Sequence record: OQ708376.1
Length of the DNA stretch: 64,000 bases
Source: Escherichia phage vB_EcoM_CRJP21
Reading direction: 5' to 3' (one strand)
Below the pieces are notes generated by a model. It worked only from the letters and a program-made list of their open reading frames with translations. It did no database searches and was not told the origin of the DNA. This document shows, one piece after another, positions 1 through 25,224 of the stretch; position 1 is the stretch's first letter; every line of letters starts with the position of its first letter. Both the position numbers and the translations under genes were made by a program.

Positions 1-1059
1 AACAGTACACCAGCATCTGCTCGTTACACTTATGTTAAAAAGAATAAGAGTACTGAGATGCTTGTTTTGCGTGATGCTGATATTATACCAATGAAAGAGA
101 ACTATGACGGGACAACATATGAACCTGTTCATTTCTTGCCTATTATTCCATTATCATTGTTTGGTAATGATAGTATGTCAGTTGGTTATAAGAGTACAAT
201 TCTACCACATAAAATTGAAGATATTATTGATAATTGCATTCGTGCTATTGATAAAAAACCACTAAAAGAAATGACCCCATATTATGTTTCATGTGGTGCA
301 AGTGATGTTGTGACTAAGCTTGATGAAAATAAGTATGAATTCTATGGTAAAGCTGAGGTTATTGATGCAAGCACTGTTAAAGTAACAGGCTTACCACCTA
401 ATTACAGTATTGAGAAATTCATCGAAAAACTAATCAAAATGAGTGATGATGGTGAGATTCGTGATTATGACAATGATAGTACTGATGTAATTGATATTAC
501 CATTAAACTTCCACGTGGAACGTCAGCTAAATGGACAGAGATGGATGTTATTGAGTATTTTGGCATTAACAAAAAAATGACTCAACATTTAACTGTTCTA
601 GGTGAAAATGGCAAAGTGAAAGTTTACGATACTACGATGGATTTGATTAAAGACTTCGTTGATTTCCGTTTCAAATATTACATCAAGCGTTATGAAAAGA
701 AACTTGATGATTGTGCTGCTGAAGTTCGTTATAAAATTCTAATTAAAGAATGTTTCGATAATGATATGATTGCTAAGGTAAAAGGATTTGCAAACCGTGC
801 TGAAATGGTTGAATTCGTTAAATCGTTAAATACCGAAATTGAAGCAACGGAAGAGAATATTCAAAGCATTGTAAACTTCCCTTCATATCGCTGGACGCAA
901 GATAATTATCAATCAGTACTACAAGATATTCAAGATAATCTTGATTTGATGGATAAGTACAATGAACTGTTATCTAATCATGACTTAATTTGGGACATTT
1001 ATAAATCTGAACTAAAAGAACTAAGAAAGATTGACTTTACTCCTAAATCAGACAATTGA
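1..1059 (+). CDS. 52: DNA topoisomerase II, GyrA-like subunit (T4 gp52-like); 5'-truncated by window edge
   Basis: Frame 1 is open from nt 1 (no upstream stop), so the CDS starts outside the window. Segment PIIPLSLFGNDSMSVGYKSTILPHKIEDIIDNC matches the GyrA/ParC region around P-LLVNG..GIAVGMAT-IPPHNL-EV; downstream tower-like region follows. Confidence 0.75.
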   Translation, partial: NSTPASARYTYVKKNKSTEMLVLRDADIIPMKENYDGTTYEPVHFLPIIPLSLFGNDSMSVGYKSTILPHKIEDIIDNCIRAIDKKPLKEMTPYYVSCGASDVVTKLDENKYEFYGKAEVIDASTVKVTGLPPNYSIEKFIEKLIKMSDDGEIRDYDNDSTDVIDITIKLPRGTSAKWTEMDVIEYFGINKKMTQHLTVLGENGKVKVYDTTMDLIKDFVDFRFKYYIKRYEKKLDDCAAEVRYKILIKECFDNDMIAKVKGFANRAEMVEFVKSLNTEIEATEENIQSIVNFPSYRWTQDNYQSVLQDIQDNLDLMDKYNELLSNHDLIWDIYKSELKELRKIDFTPKSDN

Positions 1060-18698: not shown

Positions 18699-18814
18699 AT
18701 ATACCAGAAATGGTTAACATATCATGTTACTTTCCTCCCTTACATAATAATGATGCGTTATTATATTTTCATTTTGTTCTTATTCCCCTTTTGGTACAAA
18801 ATCATTTTAGTACT

Positions 18815-18840
18815 GCCCCGATCTTCGGGGCATTTTTCTT
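18815..18840 (+). terminator. Intrinsic terminator
   Basis: GCCCCGA-TCT-TCGGGGC hairpin followed by ATTTTTCTT. Confidence 0.6.
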
Positions 18841-19721: not shown

Positions 19722-20126
19722 ATGGTAAGTTTACTAGATATTGATAATACCAGTTTAGTGCTGGTGAAAAAAGGTTTAATTCCAAATTCTAAAAAAATTG
19801 ATTATGCTGTTATTGAAACAAATATTGGAAATATCTGGTACGACTCTGAAAGGGATATTGTGTTTAGCTGTGTAGACAGTGATCGTTCTGAATGTTGTAG
19901 AGTCGGTCATGACGGACAATTTGTTTTTGAATTTCGTTATTGGAAGGACGCAAAATTTCACCAAGAACTGGTTGCTTTGTCAAATGAACTATATACAGAA
20001 GAATCGTTCTTCATGGCTAGTACTATTAATGATTTTGGTTCAGTTACATTTGAGTACTATAAAAAAATATACGCACTATCCAGAGAAGTTATGAAAATTA
20101 TCAGAACTGCTGAAGGTAAAGAATAA
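19722..20126 (+). CDS. FFQxS-motif paralog family member
   Basis: Motif instance TEESFFMASTINDFGSVTFE. Confidence 0.6.
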   Translation: MVSLLDIDNTSLVLVKKGLIPNSKKIDYAVIETNIGNIWYDSERDIVFSCVDSDRSECCRVGHDGQFVFEFRYWKDAKFHQELVALSNELYTEESFFMASTINDFGSVTFEYYKKIYALSREVMKIIRTAEGKE

Positions 20127-20127
20127 C

Positions 20128-20505
20128 ATGACTACTATATATGATATTTTGGGTGTTCTGAGTAGAAATATAGATGATGATTTTGTTATTGTTCAAGATA
20201 CTAGAAATACATTTCAACTACCAATAGGTTCACCAGATAGGTTAATTTTTAATAGATACTCAAATGAACTAACTTACATCCATGATGGGATTGCAATTGT
20301 ATCAGTTTCTATAAACGACTATACAATACGATATGTATATGACTTCAACGATTATTGTACAAGAATCCACAGTATTGATATTTCCGAAGAGGAACTATTC
20401 CAATTGTCATTGATTGAGAAAAATGTAATAGGAATTACAGAAATTGGTATTATTAAAAAAGCATTAAACTATACAAATATAAGAATTAATGGTGGGTGCA
20501 GATGA
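20128..20505 (+). CDS. FFQxS-motif paralog family member
   Basis: Motif instance SEEELFQLSLIEKNVIGITE. Confidence 0.6.
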   Translation: MTTIYDILGVLSRNIDDDFVIVQDTRNTFQLPIGSPDRLIFNRYSNELTYIHDGIAIVSVSINDYTIRYVYDFNDYCTRIHSIDISEEELFQLSLIEKNVIGITEIGIIKKALNYTNIRINGGCR

Positions 20506-20957
20506 ATGTTGACGAAATAAAAAATCATTTTGAAATTGCAATGTCATGTGAATTTGACACACAACGTGTTCATGACCCGAAAGAACATATACGCATTTGT
20601 TGTGAATTGTCAGATGATTGTAATATTTTTATTGGAAAAACCTATGACATGATCGATCTTTCATGTATAGATCCATTGGAAAGAAAAACAAAATATTTAT
20701 ATCTGTACAACACAACATCAGATACGATTGCAATACAACTAATATCAACCACAACATCCCACAGTTATTATAACATAACTGAGGTTAGTAGTTTAACGTT
20801 AACCGAAGAAGGATTCTTTCAACAATCGCTTATTCGTGAAATTGGTGTTAGTTATGATGAGTTAAATGTATTAGTAGATTGTTTCGAAAAATTGAGTACT
20901 TTTGTATTATCCCTTTTTAATATACAGTCGCAAAATCCAATGGTGGTGAAATGCTAA
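20496..20957 (+). CDS. FFQxS-motif paralog family member
   Basis: Motif instance TEEGFFQQSLIREIGVSYDEL. Confidence 0.6.
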   Translation: MQMNVDEIKNHFEIAMSCEFDTQRVHDPKEHIRICCELSDDCNIFIGKTYDMIDLSCIDPLERKTKYLYLYNTTSDTIAIQLISTTTSHSYYNITEVSSLTLTEEGFFQQSLIREIGVSYDELNVLVDCFEKLSTFVLSLFNIQSQNPMVVKC

Positions 20958-21391
20958 ATCCAAGTAAATTTCTCCACTTACTTTCGATAACATCAATACC
21001 GGATCTTACCAGTGAAACTAATGAATATCGTGAAGCTGGGGTGGTGTCTATGGAACTCGATACATTTGACCACAAATGCTATGTGACATATGACCCACCG
21101 CGTTATGGTAAAGAACATTCTTCTTTTATTTTTGTATTCGTATACACTGTATATGATAATACAACACTTGATGATGTTTGTATTGACACTTACGAAATTT
21201 GTGATAATATCATAACTGATGACAACAATAACTCATTTGATATGTCACTATATAACACAGAAGAATCGTTGTTTCAACTTAGTACTGTTATTGATGCACC
21301 ATCATTAGAAGATATAAAACAATTTCAAGAACATCTTGACGCAGTTCGTGAGATGTTCTATAATCATTATCCAGAAGTAGAGTTCAATTAA
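20951..21391 (+). CDS. FFQxS-motif paralog family member
   Basis: Motif instance TEESLFQLSTVIDAPSLEDI. Confidence 0.6.
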   Translation: MLNPSKFLHLLSITSIPDLTSETNEYREAGVVSMELDTFDHKCYVTYDPPRYGKEHSSFIFVFVYTVYDNTTLDDVCIDTYEICDNIITDDNNNSFDMSLYNTEESLFQLSTVIDAPSLEDIKQFQEHLDAVREMFYNHYPEVEFN

Positions 21392-21405
21392 CTAAAGGTA
21401 ATAAG

Positions 21406-21666
21406 ATGACTAAAGTAGTTCGTAAACGCCACATGATGAACATGGATGAATTTCGTACATTTGACAAATATCGTACTATGTTTCGTATGCTTTCACAGGG
21501 CCGTCCAATCGTCATTGTAACAGAGAATTACATGTCACCTGAGATTATGTTTGGTAATTATGAAAAGGTCTTCATGTTGTACGTGAAGCGTGGATTACTT
21601 ACAATCAAGACATTAGCTGAAGCAACTGATGAAGATATGGATGGTGATAATACCTTTACCATGTGA
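21406..21666 (+). CDS. Hypothetical protein (86 aa)
   Basis: ORF with RBS AAAGGTAA. Confidence 0.5.
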   Translation: MTKVVRKRHMMNMDEFRTFDKYRTMFRMLSQGRPIVIVTENYMSPEIMFGNYEKVFMLYVKRGLLTIKTLAEATDEDMDGDNTFTM

Positions 21667-21675
21667 GGAAATATA

Positions 21676-21753
21676 TGTCTGAAAAGCCAAAAGAACCATT
21701 AGATCGTGATGATGATTTTTATGACGAACGATATGGAGATGATGATGAGTGAA
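21676..21753 (+). CDS. Small acidic peptide (25 aa)
   Basis: Strong RBS GAGGAAA then ATG; MSEKPKEPLDRDDDFYDERYGDDDE; below the ORF-track length cut-off. Confidence 0.3.
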
Positions 21754-21996
21754 CATAGTGCTGTGCTTAAAAAGATTTTAAAGGAACTTGATGGTGAGTT
21801 TAATGTCACAGAAGAAGAATATCAGCATTGGAAGAAAGGTTTTGAACAACTAACCGAGTATGATAAAGTGTTCAATATGATTGGTGTAATTAGCCAGTAC
21901 TTACTTGGTGGAGGACGTGCAAGTGCTTCAATTCTGGCATCTGCAATCATCTGTACATCACGATGGTGTGATGAAAAAAGTTTGGAAGATTTCTAA
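21745..21996 (+). CDS. Hypothetical protein (about 83 aa)
   Basis: ORF (track 21706..21996); start placed at ATG 21745, coupled to the stop of the preceding small ORF. Confidence 0.4.
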   Translation: MSEHSAVLKKILKELDGEFNVTEEEYQHWKKGFEQLTEYDKVFNMIGVISQYLLGGGRASASILASAIICTSRWCDEKSLEDF

Positions 21997-22011
21997 ATAA
22001 GATGCTATAAT
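21982..22011 (+). promoter_or_regulatory. Putative sigma-70-type promoter
   Basis: TTGGAA, 18 bp spacer, TATAAT upstream of the methyltransferase gene. Confidence 0.4.
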
Positions 22012-22048
22012 ATATTATAGTACCTTAACAATATAAAAAGGATTTTAT

Positions 22049-22909
22049 ATGAAACCTATCCGAGTACTTTCTCTTTTTAATGGAATGAGTGTGGGATATA
22101 TGGCATTGCAAGATGCTGGTATCCCAGTTGAAAAATATTATTCATCCGAAATTGACAAGTACGCAATAGCTGAATCTCAAGCTAACTTTCCTGATATTAT
22201 CCAATTGGGTGATGTAACTAAGTGGAGAGAATGGGATATTGAGTGGGATAAAATAGATTTATTAATGGGTGGTTTCCCATGTCAAGCCTGGTCAGTTGCA
22301 GGTAAACAGGGTGGTTTAAATGATATACGTGGGCAGTTATTTTTAGTAATGGTTGAAATTTTTGATCATATCAAAAGTCTCAATCCTAACTTGAAATTTC
22401 TGTTTGAAAATGTTAAAATGAAGGAAGATTTCAAAGAATACATTAATAGTATTTTAGGAATCACGCCAGTACTGATAAACTCCCAGCATTATACGCCTCA
22501 CTTCAGGCAGAGATATTACTGGTACAGTACTGATAAGCTTTTTATACCACCTGCATTATCCAATGCACCTAAACTTCAAGATATTATTGAAGATGGTTGG
22601 TACACTGACAGAACCGCTTCGTACTGTATAGATGCTAACTATTTTAAAGGTGGTGATTGTAACCAGTACTTTAATAAATCCAGACGACAATTGGTGTTTC
22701 GTGACCCAGTGATCAGTCGTCAATATCTATTAGAGAATGGCAAAAGAAATATTGACTATAGACACTTAAGTGTAGTAGAATGTTGTAAATTACAGGGTGT
22801 TCCTGAAGATTTCTTTAAAGTGTCTAGTAAGACACAAGCATACAAAATGCTTGGGAATGGATGGACTATGCCAGTTATATCACATTTACTAAGAGAGATA
22901 TTCTTTTGA
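22049..22909 (+). CDS. DNA (cytosine-5)-methyltransferase
   Basis: Motif I LFNGMSVG, motif IV GFPCQAWS (catalytic PCQ), motif VI FENV, motif VIII FRQRYYW, motif X LGNGWTMPV; 286 aa. Confidence 0.8.
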   Translation: MKPIRVLSLFNGMSVGYMALQDAGIPVEKYYSSEIDKYAIAESQANFPDIIQLGDVTKWREWDIEWDKIDLLMGGFPCQAWSVAGKQGGLNDIRGQLFLVMVEIFDHIKSLNPNLKFLFENVKMKEDFKEYINSILGITPVLINSQHYTPHFRQRYYWYSTDKLFIPPALSNAPKLQDIIEDGWYTDRTASYCIDANYFKGGDCNQYFNKSRRQLVFRDPVISRQYLLENGKRNIDYRHLSVVECCKLQGVPEDFFKVSSKTQAYKMLGNGWTMPVISHLLREIFF

Positions 22910-23391
22910 ACATAAACAAATACCAAACTTATATAAAACGTACAGAAAGTTTCAAACGGCTGGCTGTAAAATCTGAATTAGAATTTAATTTGTATTATCC
23001 TAATATTGGTGATGAGGTATTTTATTGCTCTCATTCAAAGAATGGAACTTTACTTAAATCGGGTAAAGGAACTATTGTTGATATGACCGCAAATTTCAGA
23101 GGTAAACTTAATGTAATGTACAAAGTACAAGATTCAAGTACTGAGTGTATTCATGAAGTGATGCATAACATACCTGCATATCCAAAAGATTTTGTTCAGC
23201 TAATATCTCGAAGGGAGAAACCTATGTTTTATTGTGGTTATGACAAATTAACCAAACAAATTATTCCTAATACTATGGGAAAATTTAAAAGTGATGTGAA
23301 ATCTGAACTTGAAAAGAAATTTGGCACGTCATGGGAAACTGAAAACGAGTTTATCGAAATTCGTTTAATTGAAATTACTATACTTGAATAA
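22861..23391 (+). CDS. Hypothetical protein (176 aa)
   Basis: ORF overlapping the methyltransferase 3' end by 49 nt; start uncertain. Confidence 0.45.
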   Translation: MDYASYITFTKRDILLNINKYQTYIKRTESFKRLAVKSELEFNLYYPNIGDEVFYCSHSKNGTLLKSGKGTIVDMTANFRGKLNVMYKVQDSSTECIHEVMHNIPAYPKDFVQLISRREKPMFYCGYDKLTKQIIPNTMGKFKSDVKSELEKKFGTSWETENEFIEIRLIEITILE

Positions 23392-23397
23392 TTACAA

Positions 23398-23420
23398 ATC
23401 CACGCATTGCGTGGATTTTT
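23398..23420 (+). terminator. Intrinsic terminator
   Basis: ATCCACGC-ATT-GCGTGGAT hairpin followed by TTTT. Confidence 0.65.
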
Positions 23421-23433
23421 CATAGGTGCATAT

Positions 23434-23949
23434 ATGCCAATTCCTTATGTTAAAATTATTAATAATATTCTCGATTCATGGGAAGATGTTATTACTGGTA
23501 AAAAGCAACCATCACCAGTACATGCTTTATCTGGGAAACTTCAATTCAGAATGTCAAACCAAACTGAAACATTTAATAATCATGATATTTGCATTACATT
23601 AAAAACACCTATTAGTATTGTAATTAAAAAAAATAAAGATGATGAATTGACATTATCTATTGGTCGTGATAAAATCATTTTAAGTAATTTGTCTGAAGAA
23701 GAATTCTTTCAAAGAAGTACTATTATCGATATGAAAGATTTCACATATGAATCATTGGTTGAACTCAATACACGTTTTAACGATATTCAGGAACGATTGC
23801 GACCAATTCTTCGTATCGAAGAAGAAGCCTGGATTGAAAGTATTAGGAAGATGCAAGAAATGTTGAAAGAAAATATTAACAATCTGGGTAAAGCTACAAT
23901 GGAATTTGGTAAAACTTTTAAACTGAACTTTTCAAAGGATCGTAAATGA
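23434..23949 (+). CDS. FFQxS-motif paralog family member
   Basis: Motif instance SEEEFFQRSTIIDMKDFTYESL; track start 23407 is TTG inside the terminator, so ATG 23434 was used. Confidence 0.55.
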   Translation: MPIPYVKIINNILDSWEDVITGKKQPSPVHALSGKLQFRMSNQTETFNNHDICITLKTPISIVIKKNKDDELTLSIGRDKIILSNLSEEEFFQRSTIIDMKDFTYESLVELNTRFNDIQERLRPILRIEEEAWIESIRKMQEMLKENINNLGKATMEFGKTFKLNFSKDRK

Positions 23950-24401
23950 AAATTGATAATTTGATTCATGTTTTAGGATCTTTACATAAAATATTATCAC
24001 ATCTACATGAGATAAAGAAACTGGGATATAACATCTCAAATTCAATTGAAACTACATTTAAATATCAATCAATTACTGGTGATGGTTATTACATAATCGA
24101 ATATACCTATGAAACCGATCCAGACTTCTATCCTCTTACGTTGAGAATTTATCCAACAAATCCGAGAGGAATTCACGACATATCATCAATTTCACTTGAT
24201 CCAGATGGTGAAACGAGTATTGAATACAATAATGATTCAAAACCAGAATTTTACATTGATGATATTAAAATGATGTTCAACGATGAATATGTGTTCCAGC
24301 AAAGTACTGTGCATGATGTTGGAAGTACTAATGGACAATTTTGGAATACATGTTATTATCATATGATTGAAATTTGTAAATTACTAAAAGGCGATGATTA
24401 A
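23946..24401 (+). CDS. FFQxS-motif paralog family member
   Basis: Motif instance NDEYVFQQSTVHDVGST. Confidence 0.6.
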   Translation: MKIDNLIHVLGSLHKILSHLHEIKKLGYNISNSIETTFKYQSITGDGYYIIEYTYETDPDFYPLTLRIYPTNPRGIHDISSISLDPDGETSIEYNNDSKPEFYIDDIKMMFNDEYVFQQSTVHDVGSTNGQFWNTCYYHMIEICKLLKGDD

Positions 24402-24784
24402 TGAAATACAGCATTGAAGTACATTATACTACAGGGGACACTGAAAATTGTTATGACGTTCTTAATACAATTGATATTCAATGGTCTTCTAAAGAGGAAG
24501 CAGTTGCTGCTTTACAGTGCCTAAAAGAGCATTGGGTGTTTTATATGAAGCAAGATAATTGCTATACTAAAGAACACGAAACTATCGTTGAAAATGCTAA
24601 ACAAAAAGAGTGGTTTGACCCAATATCACCAGAATATTCATTCTTGGTTAAAGTTGGCGATGTGACAGTTCCATTACGAACACCGTGGAACGGCTACTTT
24701 GAAACTCTTCATAATGCACGAGTTGTCGCTGTTGATAATCCTGAGCAAATCGATTTCGATTCATTGGACTGGAAAAAACTATGA
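24401..24784 (+). CDS. Hypothetical protein (127 aa)
   Basis: ORF overlapping the upstream stop (TAATG). Confidence 0.5.
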   Translation: MKYSIEVHYTTGDTENCYDVLNTIDIQWSSKEEAVAALQCLKEHWVFYMKQDNCYTKEHETIVENAKQKEWFDPISPEYSFLVKVGDVTVPLRTPWNGYFETLHNARVVAVDNPEQIDFDSLDWKKL

Positions 24785-25224
24785 CAGTACTGCACCAATT
24801 GAAGAAGGTTAAGCATCCAGTTGTATACGAGGATTGGAAACGACAGAAGTTGATGGGTGATTTTTATTTCCCAAAATCTAAAGTTCTTGCGAATTCAAGA
24901 TGTACATATGTCACACATAATGATAAAGATACAGTATTTGTTGAAATGGGTTTCAATCCATCAAATACAATGTTCAGTACTAACCAGACATTTTACAAAT
25001 TTCATATCCAAAAAGATTCATTTTCTATCATGATTTTAAAACTTTTAGTTGAAGATCTGCTATACCGTGGTGAACGTGTTCCTTTATCATTAGTGGATAT
25101 TCCTTATGATAATTTAGAGGAAATGTACTTCCAACAGTTGACAGTACAAGAAAACTTTGGTATGATAGGACTTCAAGAGTTAGAGATGATTAAGCAAATT
25201 CGTGATATCTACTTTAAGGAGTAA
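24781..25224 (+). CDS. FFQxS-motif paralog family member
   Basis: Motif instance LEEMYFQQLTVQENFGMIGLQEL. Confidence 0.55.
   Translation: MTVLHQLKKVKHPVVYEDWKRQKLMGDFYFPKSKVLANSRCTYVTHNDKDTVFVEMGFNPSNTMFSTNQTFYKFHIQKDSFSIMILKLLVEDLLYRGERVPLSLVDIPYDNLEEMYFQQLTVQENFGMIGLQELEMIKQIRDIYFKE

Follow-up and report, generated by a model that had tools for sequence, protein, structure and literature searches.

A compact DNMT3-like C5-cytosine DNA methyltransferase of an Asteriusvirus jumbo coliphage, probably a self-methylase

The reading frame at 22049-22909 of the analysed stretch of Escherichia phage vB_EcoM_CRJP21 (the window, 64,000 nucleotides of record OQ708376.1, to which all positions refer) encodes a genuine, canonical C5-cytosine DNA methyltransferase with motifs I-X in the normal order. 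Its product is probably a solitary SAM-dependent enzyme of Asteriusvirus, compact and DNMT3-like, that marks the phage's own DNA. This self-methylase reading is supported by the family assignment, the motifs, purifying selection, the lack of nuclease neighbours and the 5mC published for close relatives. The first-pass annotation had likewise read the gene as an orphan C5 self-methylase, and on the grounds of family, motifs, selection and the 5mC of relatives that interpretation is retained, while AGTACT, its candidate target, is given up.

The gene, its motifs and its orthologs

The frame runs from ATG to stop exactly within these limits on the plus strand and specifies 286 amino acids (Table 1). 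The protein matched the profiles PF00145 (E=4.1e-38, 132 bits versus a cutoff of 22), TIGR00675 dcm (120 bits, cutoff 100.65) and phrog_116 (E=1e-60), which together with motif inspection bear out the initial assignment to the C5-cytosine methyltransferases. Of the core motifs named at that stage, PCQ, ENV and GNGW were found as described, while 'QRR' corresponds only loosely to the RQR within FRQRYYW (QxRxR motif). The AlphaFold model (pLDDT 94.1, pTM 0.90) showed a two-lobed methyltransferase fold. Purifying selection on the gene is strong: dN/dS is 0.11 in the comparison with L011 and lies below 0.06 in that with Erwinia phage Hallingskeid. In the homolog search for the family, 8000 candidates were scored, all at E<=1e-10, and the genome scan gave 502 matches.

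Table 1. Positions of the methyltransferase gene, its motifs and neighbouring elements in the window
Feature	Position	Strand	Remarks
Sigma-70-like promoter match (TTGGAA, 18 nt, TGnTATAAT)	21982..22011	+	Just upstream; consensus match only
Shine-Dalgarno-like AAGGA	22038..22042	+	6 nt ahead of ATG; read from sequence
C5-cytosine DNA methyltransferase gene	22049..22909	+	286 aa + stop; ortholog = 121Q gp91, G17_00216
Motif I (SAM binding), FNGMSVG, residues 10-16	22076..22096	+	DNMT3-type spacing F-x-G-x-x-x-G; direct inspection
Motif IV, PCQ, residues 77-79, catalytic Cys78	22277..22285	+	P77 and C78 invariant in 53-sequence alignment
Motif VI, ENV, residues 120-122	22406..22414	+	E120, N121 and V122 invariant in 53-sequence alignment
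Motif VIII, RxR (R153-Q-R155), within FRQRYYW	22505..22513	+	R153 and R155 invariant in 53-sequence alignment
Conserved core of target-recognition domain (TRD), TDRTASYCIDANYFKGGDCNQYFNKSRRQLVF, residues 186-217	22604..22699	+	53-sequence alignment
Motif IX, RHLSVVECCKLQ, including ECCKLQ, residues 244-249	22760..22795	+	R238, L240 and E244 invariant in 53-sequence alignment
Motif X, GNGW, residues 269-272	22853..22864	+	Direct inspection; N270 invariant in 53-sequence alignment
176-aa ORF	22861..23391	+	Downstream; 49-nt overlap with methyltransferase 3' end; phrog_28599 (unknown function)
Terminator-like hairpin	23396..23418	+	Closes methyltransferase transcription unit; annotated terminator in G17

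The motif order is canonical, and the TRD sits between motifs VIII and IX. Glu120 of the motif VI ENV is the residue that contacts the flipped cytosine. In the alignment of 53 sequences, L7, S8, L9, F10 and G12 of the motif I region were invariant, as were C193, A196, Y198, K200, K210 and R212 of the TRD core, in which D187, R188, K190, S191, D195, N197, G201, G202, Y207, R213 and Q214 were conserved in at least 90% of the sequences. This TRD block is almost invariant over thousands of phage and prophage homologs, and directly after it (residues 218-236) homologs carry a variable insert of 0-100 aa. By the published criterion for motif X (PMC12783734), the retained Asn270 marks the protein as a predicted SAM-using methyltransferase, not a Cx-SAM-using CmoX.

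The phage is an Asteriusvirus jumbo coliphage of 350 kb, and the window is 99.9% identical to vB_EcoM_G17. The protein is 100% identical in G17, Sharanji (recorded host, K-12 MG1655) and E9.1, and 99.3% identical in 121Q. The orthologs of GAP32, CBB and Hallingskeid share 75-78% protein identity over the full length, with the same protein length and the same TRD; that of Hallingskeid (CDS0275, 78% identical) has a near-identical TRD, the orthologs of Hallingskeid and Kaldavass are 76-78% identical, and a RaK2-like ortholog shows about 64% identity. In G17, 121Q, PBECO4, phAPEC6, Sharanji, GAP32, CBB and Hallingskeid, the gene likewise lies among small early-type genes, and the annotated jumbo-phage orthologs show no difference of substance from the 286-aa enzyme.

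The gene was already known, because it is annotated in the records of relatives and mentioned in genome papers: more than 40 GenBank records annotate it, with frameshifted natural variants among the Salmonella SD-series records, the identical protein is listed as a cytosine methylase in G17 and Sharanji, and the genome papers of phAPEC6, Sharanji, RaK2 and CBB mention the methyltransferase as presumed protective methylation. It is ordinary for a phage and of little value as a discovery. The labels given to relatives, 'haeIIIM' in Sharanji, 'DNMT2' in one GenBank ortholog record and 'HpaII methylase' for one 83%-identical homolog, are automatic best-hit names without specificity information.

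The gene lies in a plus-strand run of small genes, with terminators at its bounds. Promoter-like sequences are as frequent in the region as in shuffles (39 versus 35.8), so that the sigma-70-like match is not evidence of function. All flanking ORFs are shorter than 200 aa, none with a Pfam match above threshold, and the G17 annotation lists hypothetical proteins throughout the 8 kb on each side. Among the ten flanking ORFs, no nuclease or defence family was detected with Pfam, PHROGs and PADLOC, in agreement with the earlier statement that no restriction endonuclease is adjacent. When the 135 neighbours of homologs elsewhere, in bacterial genomes, were tallied, no endonuclease recurred; the genes seen there included SSB, DNA polymerase A, replisome organiser, dUTPase, dCMP deaminase, other methyltransferases and Mom. 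The term orphan holds because no nuclease family is detectable in either set.

Target site and alternative readings

Virion DNA of Hallingskeid and Kaldavass carries 5mC at CC[AT]GG and 6mA at GATC as determined by Nanopore, and the native-versus-amplified (WGA) comparison for Hallingskeid reported GATC and CCWGG as the only modified motifs (PMC11780129). For RaK2, the genome paper mentions, as 'data not shown', resistance of the DNA to methylation-sensitive enzymes and bisulfite detection of 5mC (PMC3622015). The 5mC in virions of these relatives indirectly supports SAM-dependent methyl transfer to cytosine C5 in DNA by the predicted enzyme (PMC11780129, PMC3622015). The sole other methyltransferase of Hallingskeid, CDS0623, is a PF05869 Dam-type N6-adenine enzyme; the ortholog is the lone C5 enzyme there, and therefore one C5 enzyme matches one 5mC motif, leaving CCWGG as the leading candidate target. 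The authors of that Erwinia-phage study pointed out that host methylases could account for the CCWGG mark (PMC11780129). A literature search on Dcm or a CCWGG methylome in Erwinia hosts such as Erwinia aphidicola yielded no report of either. McrBC requires R-5mC, and neither of the E. coli Type IV enzymes McrBC and McrA recognises C(5mC)WGG. Because of the ortholog Nanopore data and this lack of recognition, we tentatively regard CCWGG, methylated at the inner C in the same pattern as by E. coli Dcm, as the most likely target motif.

Such a specificity would be convergent with that of E. coli Dcm, to which the phage protein is not orthologous. CCWGG is kept in the genomes (25 versus 33-46 expected in the window; 51 versus 39-58 in Hallingskeid), a retention that is not unique because GGCC, CGCG and GCWGC are likewise retained in the window. 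Among 68 other family-bearing phage loci, no 5-mer palindrome is more depleted than CCWGG (0.41), and the deamination products CTWGG/CCWAG are not in excess (0.98); this pattern looks like restriction avoidance and counts against family-wide CCWGG protection. An attempt to read the target off the depleted or retained k-mers of these 68 loci gave an ambiguous result: GATC is methylated in the relatives but still depleted, so that depletion does not discriminate between targets.

As an alternative, the same orphan enzyme could target a CpG-containing motif, the CCWGG mark of the relatives coming from host Dcm. The best structural and sequence matches are all CpG-specific DNMT3 enzymes, and the RaK2 paper speaks of bisulfite-detected methylated 'CmpG', a poor fit to CCWGG, and of resistance to CpG-methylation-sensitive enzymes (PMC3622015). 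The window is also depleted in CpG (0.76), TpG/CpA is in excess (1.25), and GTGC/GCAC (1.21) and CTGG/CCAG (1.16) are slightly so. However, AT-rich genomes are commonly poor in CpG, and the ratio ranges from 0.06 to 1.56 among family-bearing loci; the RaK2 statement is a truncated one marked 'data not shown', and the RaK2-like ortholog is only about 64% identical. No CpG-type motif was reported from native-versus-WGA Nanopore sequencing of two phages whose enzymes are 76-78% identical, and dense CpG methylation would expose the DNA to McrA, McrBC and Mrr of K-12, on which Sharanji grows. A CpG target is rather unlikely. Far less probable is a target, GCGC or CCGG, that the phage has purged from its genome; the enzyme would then leave phage DNA unmarked and act on host DNA or persist as a relic. 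GCGC is completely absent (0 versus 22-27 expected in the window, 39-51 in Hallingskeid and 14-16 in L011), the CCGG ratio is 0.2-0.3, phage methylomes would not reveal such a specificity, and the 83%-identical homolog carries its HpaII label. Nevertheless, 15-17 classic 6-bp palindromes are wholly purged together with GCGC in the window and Hallingskeid alike, and the loss of GCGC and CCGG fits general restriction avoidance because at least 15 unrelated 6-bp palindromes are equally purged; GCGC shows no depletion in other family-bearing loci (0.88), automatic names say nothing of specificity, and strong purifying selection on an enzyme with no substrate in its own genome would need an extra, unsupported function. 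Methylation of AGTACT, suggested by the first-pass annotation because of its over-representation, deserves hardly any credence. The excess itself was confirmed, and no other hexamer of the window is over-represented as strongly (157 copies of AGTACT versus 17-31 expected, about 9-fold, z=23-38; z about 34-48 with 17 expected), but it is a bare hexamer, not embedded in a longer conserved palindrome, with copies scattered over coding sequence in all three frames. It is also the top over-represented hexamer in two related jumbo phages with an ortholog, and no other function is known for it. Against this, Hallingskeid combines the excess (155 versus 16 in 50 kb; some 1,100 sites in the whole genome) with an enzyme of 78% identity, and modification was reported for GATC and CCWGG alone. 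The excess is missing from 68 other family loci with the same TRD core (pooled ratio 0.45); it is confined to this phage lineage and does not track the methyltransferase family. Moreover, AGTA(5mC)T would create an R-5mC McrBC site per ~400 bp, hard to square with the growth of Sharanji, which has the identical enzyme, on McrBC+ MG1655, and a methylation target would not be expected to stand out by over-representation. The correction keeps a wrong link from spreading.

Two further readings question the orphan status or the chemistry. It is extremely improbable that the 176-aa ORF encodes a small, unrecognisable restriction endonuclease forming a phage-borne restriction-modification pair with the methyltransferase. 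The overlap and common transcription unit suggest co-expression, and restriction enzymes often escape profile searches; the ORF gave no Pfam or PADLOC match and no Vsr domain. Its homologs, however, form 4 clusters, all within this phage lineage, other genes take its place in Hallingskeid, and no recurrent nuclease lies next to homologs elsewhere; the ORF is not a conserved partner of the methyltransferase. Its structure model, built on only 5 near-identical sequences, is uninformative (pLDDT 47), with a beta-rich core and no recognisable PD-(D/E)xK layout. A different chemistry or substrate has a next to negligible probability, whether as a CmoX-like Cx-SAM cytosine carboxymethyltransferase, as the first step of TET-type hypermodification or as a DNMT2-like tRNA methyltransferase. 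Phage homologs with the C5-methyltransferase fold do perform such reactions (PMC12783734, PMC8256090), these phages carry many tRNA genes, and one ortholog bears the DNMT2 label. The CmoX type, however, needs SPPC and an Arg in place of the motif X Asn (HhaI N304), whereas the phage protein has GFPCQ and GNGW with the invariant N270 and no linked CmoA (PMC12783734). For the TET-coupled type, which has an adjacent TET/JBP dioxygenase (PMC8256090), neither the G17 annotation nor Pfam revealed TET/JBP, CmoA or glycosyltransferase in the flanking ORFs. Matches to DNMT2/TRDMT1 (4e-10 to 1e-6) are far weaker than those to DNMT3 (2e-23), and the 'CFT' motif of the DNMT2 TRD does not occur in the sequence.

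More curious than the methyltransferase are two by-products of the analysis, the AGTACT excess and the complete absence of GCGC. A deamination route from AGCGCT to AGTACT was considered and rejected: the GTAC excess (~120-215 sites) is far above the GCGC deficit (~25), and its second step would demand relaxed specificity.

Proposed role of the enzyme

The enzyme has a single-domain architecture, with a Rossmann catalytic core and a very short TRD. During infection, the enzyme would flip out the target cytosine for attack on C6 by Cys78, and the methyl group of SAM would then be transferred to C5, presumably on replicating phage DNA. Progeny genomes would carry 5mC at a short motif and would be shielded there from host Type II restriction. 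Methylation may in this way supplement the main strategy of the phage, the purging of restriction sites from its genome.

A wider proposal, which we put forward as a doubtful one, is that the enzyme belongs to a very large family of compact DNMT3-like orphan methyltransferases in phages and prophages of many bacterial phyla, with one shared specificity, CCWGG in the enterobacterial jumbo phages, and that among prokaryotic and viral sequences this family is the closest relative of the eukaryotic DNMT3 catalytic domain. A shared specificity is proposed because the TRD core is almost invariant. If true, recognition of CCWGG by a TRD unrelated to Dcm would represent convergent mimicry of a host epigenetic mark, giving protection from EcoRII-type enzymes while going unseen by Type IV restriction. 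Knowledge of the motif would have modest practical value: phage-therapy and cloning laboratories could learn from it which restriction systems these jumbo phages evade and which Type IV or retron-type sensors may be set off.

Comparison with known methyltransferases

E. coli Dcm and M.EcoRII, both specific for CCWGG, share superfamily and chemistry with the phage enzyme, and the ortholog Nanopore data make the same C(5mC)WGG mark possible. The phage enzyme is, however, not an ortholog of them (NF007772, 21.4 bits versus a cutoff of 710); compared with E. coli Dcm, it is about 190 aa shorter, with an unrelated TRD and no overlapping vsr. With M.HhaI and M.HaeIII it has motifs I-VI in common (E about 1e-17) and an identical catalytic mechanism, but the similarity does not extend beyond the N-terminal half, the phage enzyme has a different, shorter TRD, and a cognate endonuclease is lacking. 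M.SpyI of phage phi1207.3, 30% identical over the full length, was rejected as a guide to specificity, its TRD being unrelated and its gene part of an LlaJI-type restriction-modification cassette. The GpC-specific, TET-linked phage C5 methyltransferases of Burke et al. were likewise set aside as a parallel, there being no TET neighbour at this locus.

The 'Dcm-like' methyltransferase of K42/Bas06 triggers retron Ec86 and acts via a CCWGG site (bioRxiv 10.1101/2023.08.16.553469), indicating that such phage enzymes can be sensed by host defence. It is also a small orphan C5 methylase of a coliphage, modelled by its authors on DNMT3A. As a member of the present family it was rejected (MZ501090 40087-40797, 236 aa; BLASTP E=0.04, hhalign probability 5%), and the conserved TRD block is missing from it.

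The best PDB sequence match is the catalytic domain of eukaryotic DNMT3A/3B/3C (E about 2e-23, residues 2-282), and DNMT3A/B/C domains fill the best 50 of 275 PDB structure matches at E<=0.001 (TM 0.79-0.80, 25-28% identity). Shared with DNMT3 are the size of about 285 aa, the F-x-G-x-x-x-G motif I, a short TRD loop and a similar C-terminal 'W-[ST]-x-PVIxHL' helix. Unlike DNMT3, the phage protein has no PWWP or ADD domains and keeps the canonical Asn in motif X, where DNMT3 has Arg, and no CpG motif was reported in the ortholog methylomes. The phage enzyme resembles DNMT3 but is not a member, and comparative studies of mechanism could make use of it as a DNMT3-like methyltransferase of small size.

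Methyltransferase gene and its neighbourhood

The first-pass annotation had described a 286-aa reading frame with Dcm-type motifs, and this was confirmed by the ORF call, profile scores and motif inspection (see the table for coordinates). The predicted product matches PF00145 (E=4.1e-38, 132 bits against a cutoff of 22), TIGR00675 (120 bits, curated threshold 100.65) and phrog_116 (E=1e-60), scores far over curated thresholds that assign it by sequence to the C5-cytosine DNA methyltransferase (MTase) family. Direct inspection showed motifs I to X in canonical order. On the opposite strand only ORFs of 55-56 aa were detected, and these look spurious. The dN/dS ratio was 0.11 against the ortholog in L011, a related jumbo-phage locus (76% identity), and <0.06, with synonymous sites saturated, against that of the Erwinia jumbo phage Hallingskeid, pointing to strong purifying selection.

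Features of the methyltransferase gene and its surroundings
Feature	Position	Strand	Remark
MTase ORF	ATG 22049, stop codon end 22909	+	286 aa
Motif I, FNGMSVG	residues 10-16		direct inspection
Motif IV, PCQ	residues 77-79		direct inspection
Motif VI, ENV	residues 120-122		direct inspection
Motif VIII, RQR	residues 153-155		direct inspection; inside FRQRYYW
Motif IX, ECCKLQ	residues 244-249		direct inspection
Motif X, GNGW	residues 269-272		direct inspection
Shine-Dalgarno-like AAGGA	6 nt 5' of MTase ATG	+	
176-aa ORF	22861-23391	+	overlaps MTase 3' end by 49 nt
Terminator-like hairpin	18814-18832		bounds the gene run holding MTase
Terminator-like hairpin	23396-23418		bounds the gene run holding MTase

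The gene sits in a plus-strand run between two terminator-like hairpins. Searches of Pfam, PHROGs and PADLOC with the ten ORFs flanking MTase (20128-25224) returned no nuclease or defence family; all ten fall into phage-specific families without assigned function, and the annotation of Escherichia phage vB_EcoM_G17 lists only hypothetical proteins for 8 kb on each side. Homologs of the overlapping 176-aa ORF form 4 clusters, all within this phage lineage; beside the Hallingskeid ortholog, CDS0275, other genes take its place. Its structure model was of low confidence (pLDDT 47), with a predicted beta-rich core at residues 45-102. A total of 502 MTase relatives turned up in bacterial and archaeal genomes across many phyla. 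A set of 135 ORFs immediately adjoining such relatives represents phage replication and nucleotide metabolism, including SSB, DNA polymerase A, replisome organiser, dUTPase and dCMP deaminase, together with N6/N4 methylases, Mom and a T4-type capsid protein, and no restriction endonuclease recurs among them. The proposed absence of an adjacent restriction endonuclease was thus upheld, and the reading as an orphan self-methylase is supported at the sequence level by the lack of a detectable nuclease neighbour and by purifying selection.

Seven adjacent small ORFs of 125-171 aa (19722-21391 and 23434-25224) have a common C-terminal motif, (T/S)EE.[FLY]FQ.S[TL][IV].D, at pairwise identities of 20-26%, and form a tandem paralog array, split by the block 21406-23391 that holds MTase.

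The 3 kb around MTase is 99.9% identical to G17 and Sharanji and 99.5% to 121Q, all Asteriusvirus jumbo myoviruses of 348-373 kb, and 45 phage records match the DNA of this region. G17, Sharanji and E9.1 encode exactly the same protein (100% identity), and the versions from jumbo phages of Erwinia, Xanthomonas, Pectobacterium and Cronobacter (Hallingskeid, Kaldavass, XbC2, CBB and GAP32) share 75-78% identity with it. Since matching records already label the gene DNA cytosine methyltransferase or modification methylase, and it figures as presumed protective methylation in the publications on phAPEC6 and Sharanji (PMC7247149, PMC11895373), the feature is already known at the level first claimed. 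Against SD-6_S16, SD-1_S14, CMSTMSU and TH47 (OR699182, OR699183, MH494197, MT446416), relatives infecting Salmonella and E. coli, MTase aligns in 2-3 pieces or incompletely; the cause may be a frameshift, a truncation or a sequencing error, and copies that are truly broken would be natural knockouts.

AGTACT excess and loss of restriction sites

In the window, as in Hallingskeid and L011, AGTACT far exceeds every other hexamer in over-representation: the window holds 157 copies, where a first-order Markov model predicts 17 and a second-order model 31 (z=23-38). For the extended form CAGTACTG the count is 26, with 0.7-2 expected. The first-pass claim of over-representation therefore stands, but the sites lack an extended conserved flank and do not belong to a longer conserved palindrome. 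Their distribution over all three reading frames (61/29/41) and non-coding DNA (26) indicates a DNA-level signal. The excess is lineage-specific, being conserved in E. coli and Erwinia jumbo phages (L011, 68 against 6; Hallingskeid, 155 against 16 in 50 kb; also the related locus L001) and absent from unrelated phages (pooled ratio 0.45 in 68 other phage loci with the MTase family).

GCGC is missing entirely from the window (22-27 expected), Hallingskeid (39-51; L170, PQ464590 110000-159999), L011 (14-16) and L001. Both the window and Hallingskeid also lack 15-17 classic 6-bp Type II palindromes, including PstI, PvuII, NcoI, BamHI, KpnI, SalI, XhoI, SacI and SphI sites (among the sequences CTGCAG, CAGCTG, CCATGG, GGATCC, GGTACC, GTCGAC, CTCGAG, GAGCTC, GCATGC, TGGCCA and others), and in jumbo-phage sequences the ratio is 0.2-0.3 for CCGG and about 0.5 for GATC. 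Such loss reflects either an unusually thorough restriction-site purge or avoidance of a phage-encoded nuclease. Within the window CpG falls short of expectation (odds ratio 0.76) and TpG/CpA exceeds it (1.25), and GTGC/GCAC (1.21) and CTGG/CCAG (1.16) are slightly over-represented; this is compatible with 5mC deamination, although such a pattern is also frequent in AT-rich genomes. MTase itself is less curious than two features conserved in this jumbo-phage clade, the 9-fold AGTACT excess and the complete exclusion of GCGC.

Candidate target sites

Hallingskeid CDS0275 is 78% identical to MTase with a near-identical target-recognition domain (TRD), and Nanopore comparison of native and whole-genome-amplified Hallingskeid DNA detected modification only at GATC (6mA) and CC[AT]GG (5mC) (PMC11780129). 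About 1,100 methylated AGTACT sites would scarcely have escaped this analysis. Moreover, McrBC targets R-5mC, AGTA(5mC)T is such a site, and Sharanji, with an identical MTase, has K-12 MG1655 as recorded host. On these grounds, and given the lineage-bound excess, AGTACT, first proposed as a candidate, was rejected; it is apparently not methylated and is most improbable as the target.

The methyltransferase complement of Hallingskeid consists of just two enzymes, CDS0275 and CDS0623, the latter a Dam-type N6-adenine enzyme (PF05869, E=9.5e-32), and since one 6mA and one 5mC motif were detected, the simplest assignment of the C5 enzyme would be CCWGG. By this analogy CCWGG is a tentative target of MTase, at somewhat under even chances; a CpG-containing motif is unlikely, and another motif takes the remaining probability. 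CCWGG is retained in the window (25 against 33-46 expected) and Hallingskeid (51 against 39-58), and the assignment fits the restriction-avoidance pattern of the genome. C(5mC)WGG is the sole 5mC pattern known to be tolerated by E. coli's own Type IV systems. Host methylases might instead have made the Hallingskeid mark, as the study's authors themselves suggest (PMC11780129); our literature search found no data on Erwinia Dcm. Also counting against CCWGG, a passage on jumbo phage RaK2 reports methylated CpG by bisulfite ('data not shown'; PMC3622015), MTase is not an ortholog of E. coli Dcm, and in the 68 other family loci no 5-mer palindrome is more depleted than CCWGG (527 against 1276 expected, ratio 0.41), often with 0-1 site per 20 kb, with no excess of its deamination products in these loci. 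GGCC (0.50) and CGCG (0.52) follow in depletion there.

Comparison with known methyltransferases

Alternative chemistries are excluded as judged from sequence. CmoX carboxymethyltransferases require SPPC and Arg in place of the motif-X Asn (PMC12783734), whereas MTase carries GFPCQ and GNGW and its N270 does not vary among homologs; similarity to DNMT2 is much weaker, its CFT motif being missing, and no TET/JBP partner is present among the flanking ORFs. Two further leads were dropped: M.SpyI (30% identical) has an unrelated TRD, and the K42/Bas06 'Dcm-like' enzyme, which triggers retron Ec86 via CCWGG and was modelled by its authors on DNMT3A (bioRxiv 10.1101/2023.08.16.553469), shows no homology past the generic fold.

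Between motifs VIII and IX, the TRD block DR.KSYCIDANY.KGG...QYF.KSRRQLVF hardly varies, even in homologs with as little as 49% identity. TRDs ordinarily differ with specificity, yet this block is conserved, suggesting a recognition core common to the family. After this core and before motif IX (query residues 217-236), the sequences of the 53-member homolog alignment carry an insert whose length ranges from 0 to about 100 aa; it is hypervariable among homologs, minimal in jumbo-phage enzymes including this one, and may modulate specificity within the family.

The AlphaFold model of MTase, built from 53 homologs, is of high confidence (pLDDT 94.1, pTM 0.90), and each of its 50 best PDB hits is a DNMT3A, 3B or 3C catalytic domain (TM 0.79-0.80, 25-28% identity). 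For M.HhaI and M.HaeIII the sequence match is confined to the N-terminal half (E about 1e-17), while DNMT3, the best PDB sequence match, aligns over residues 2-282 (E about 2e-23).
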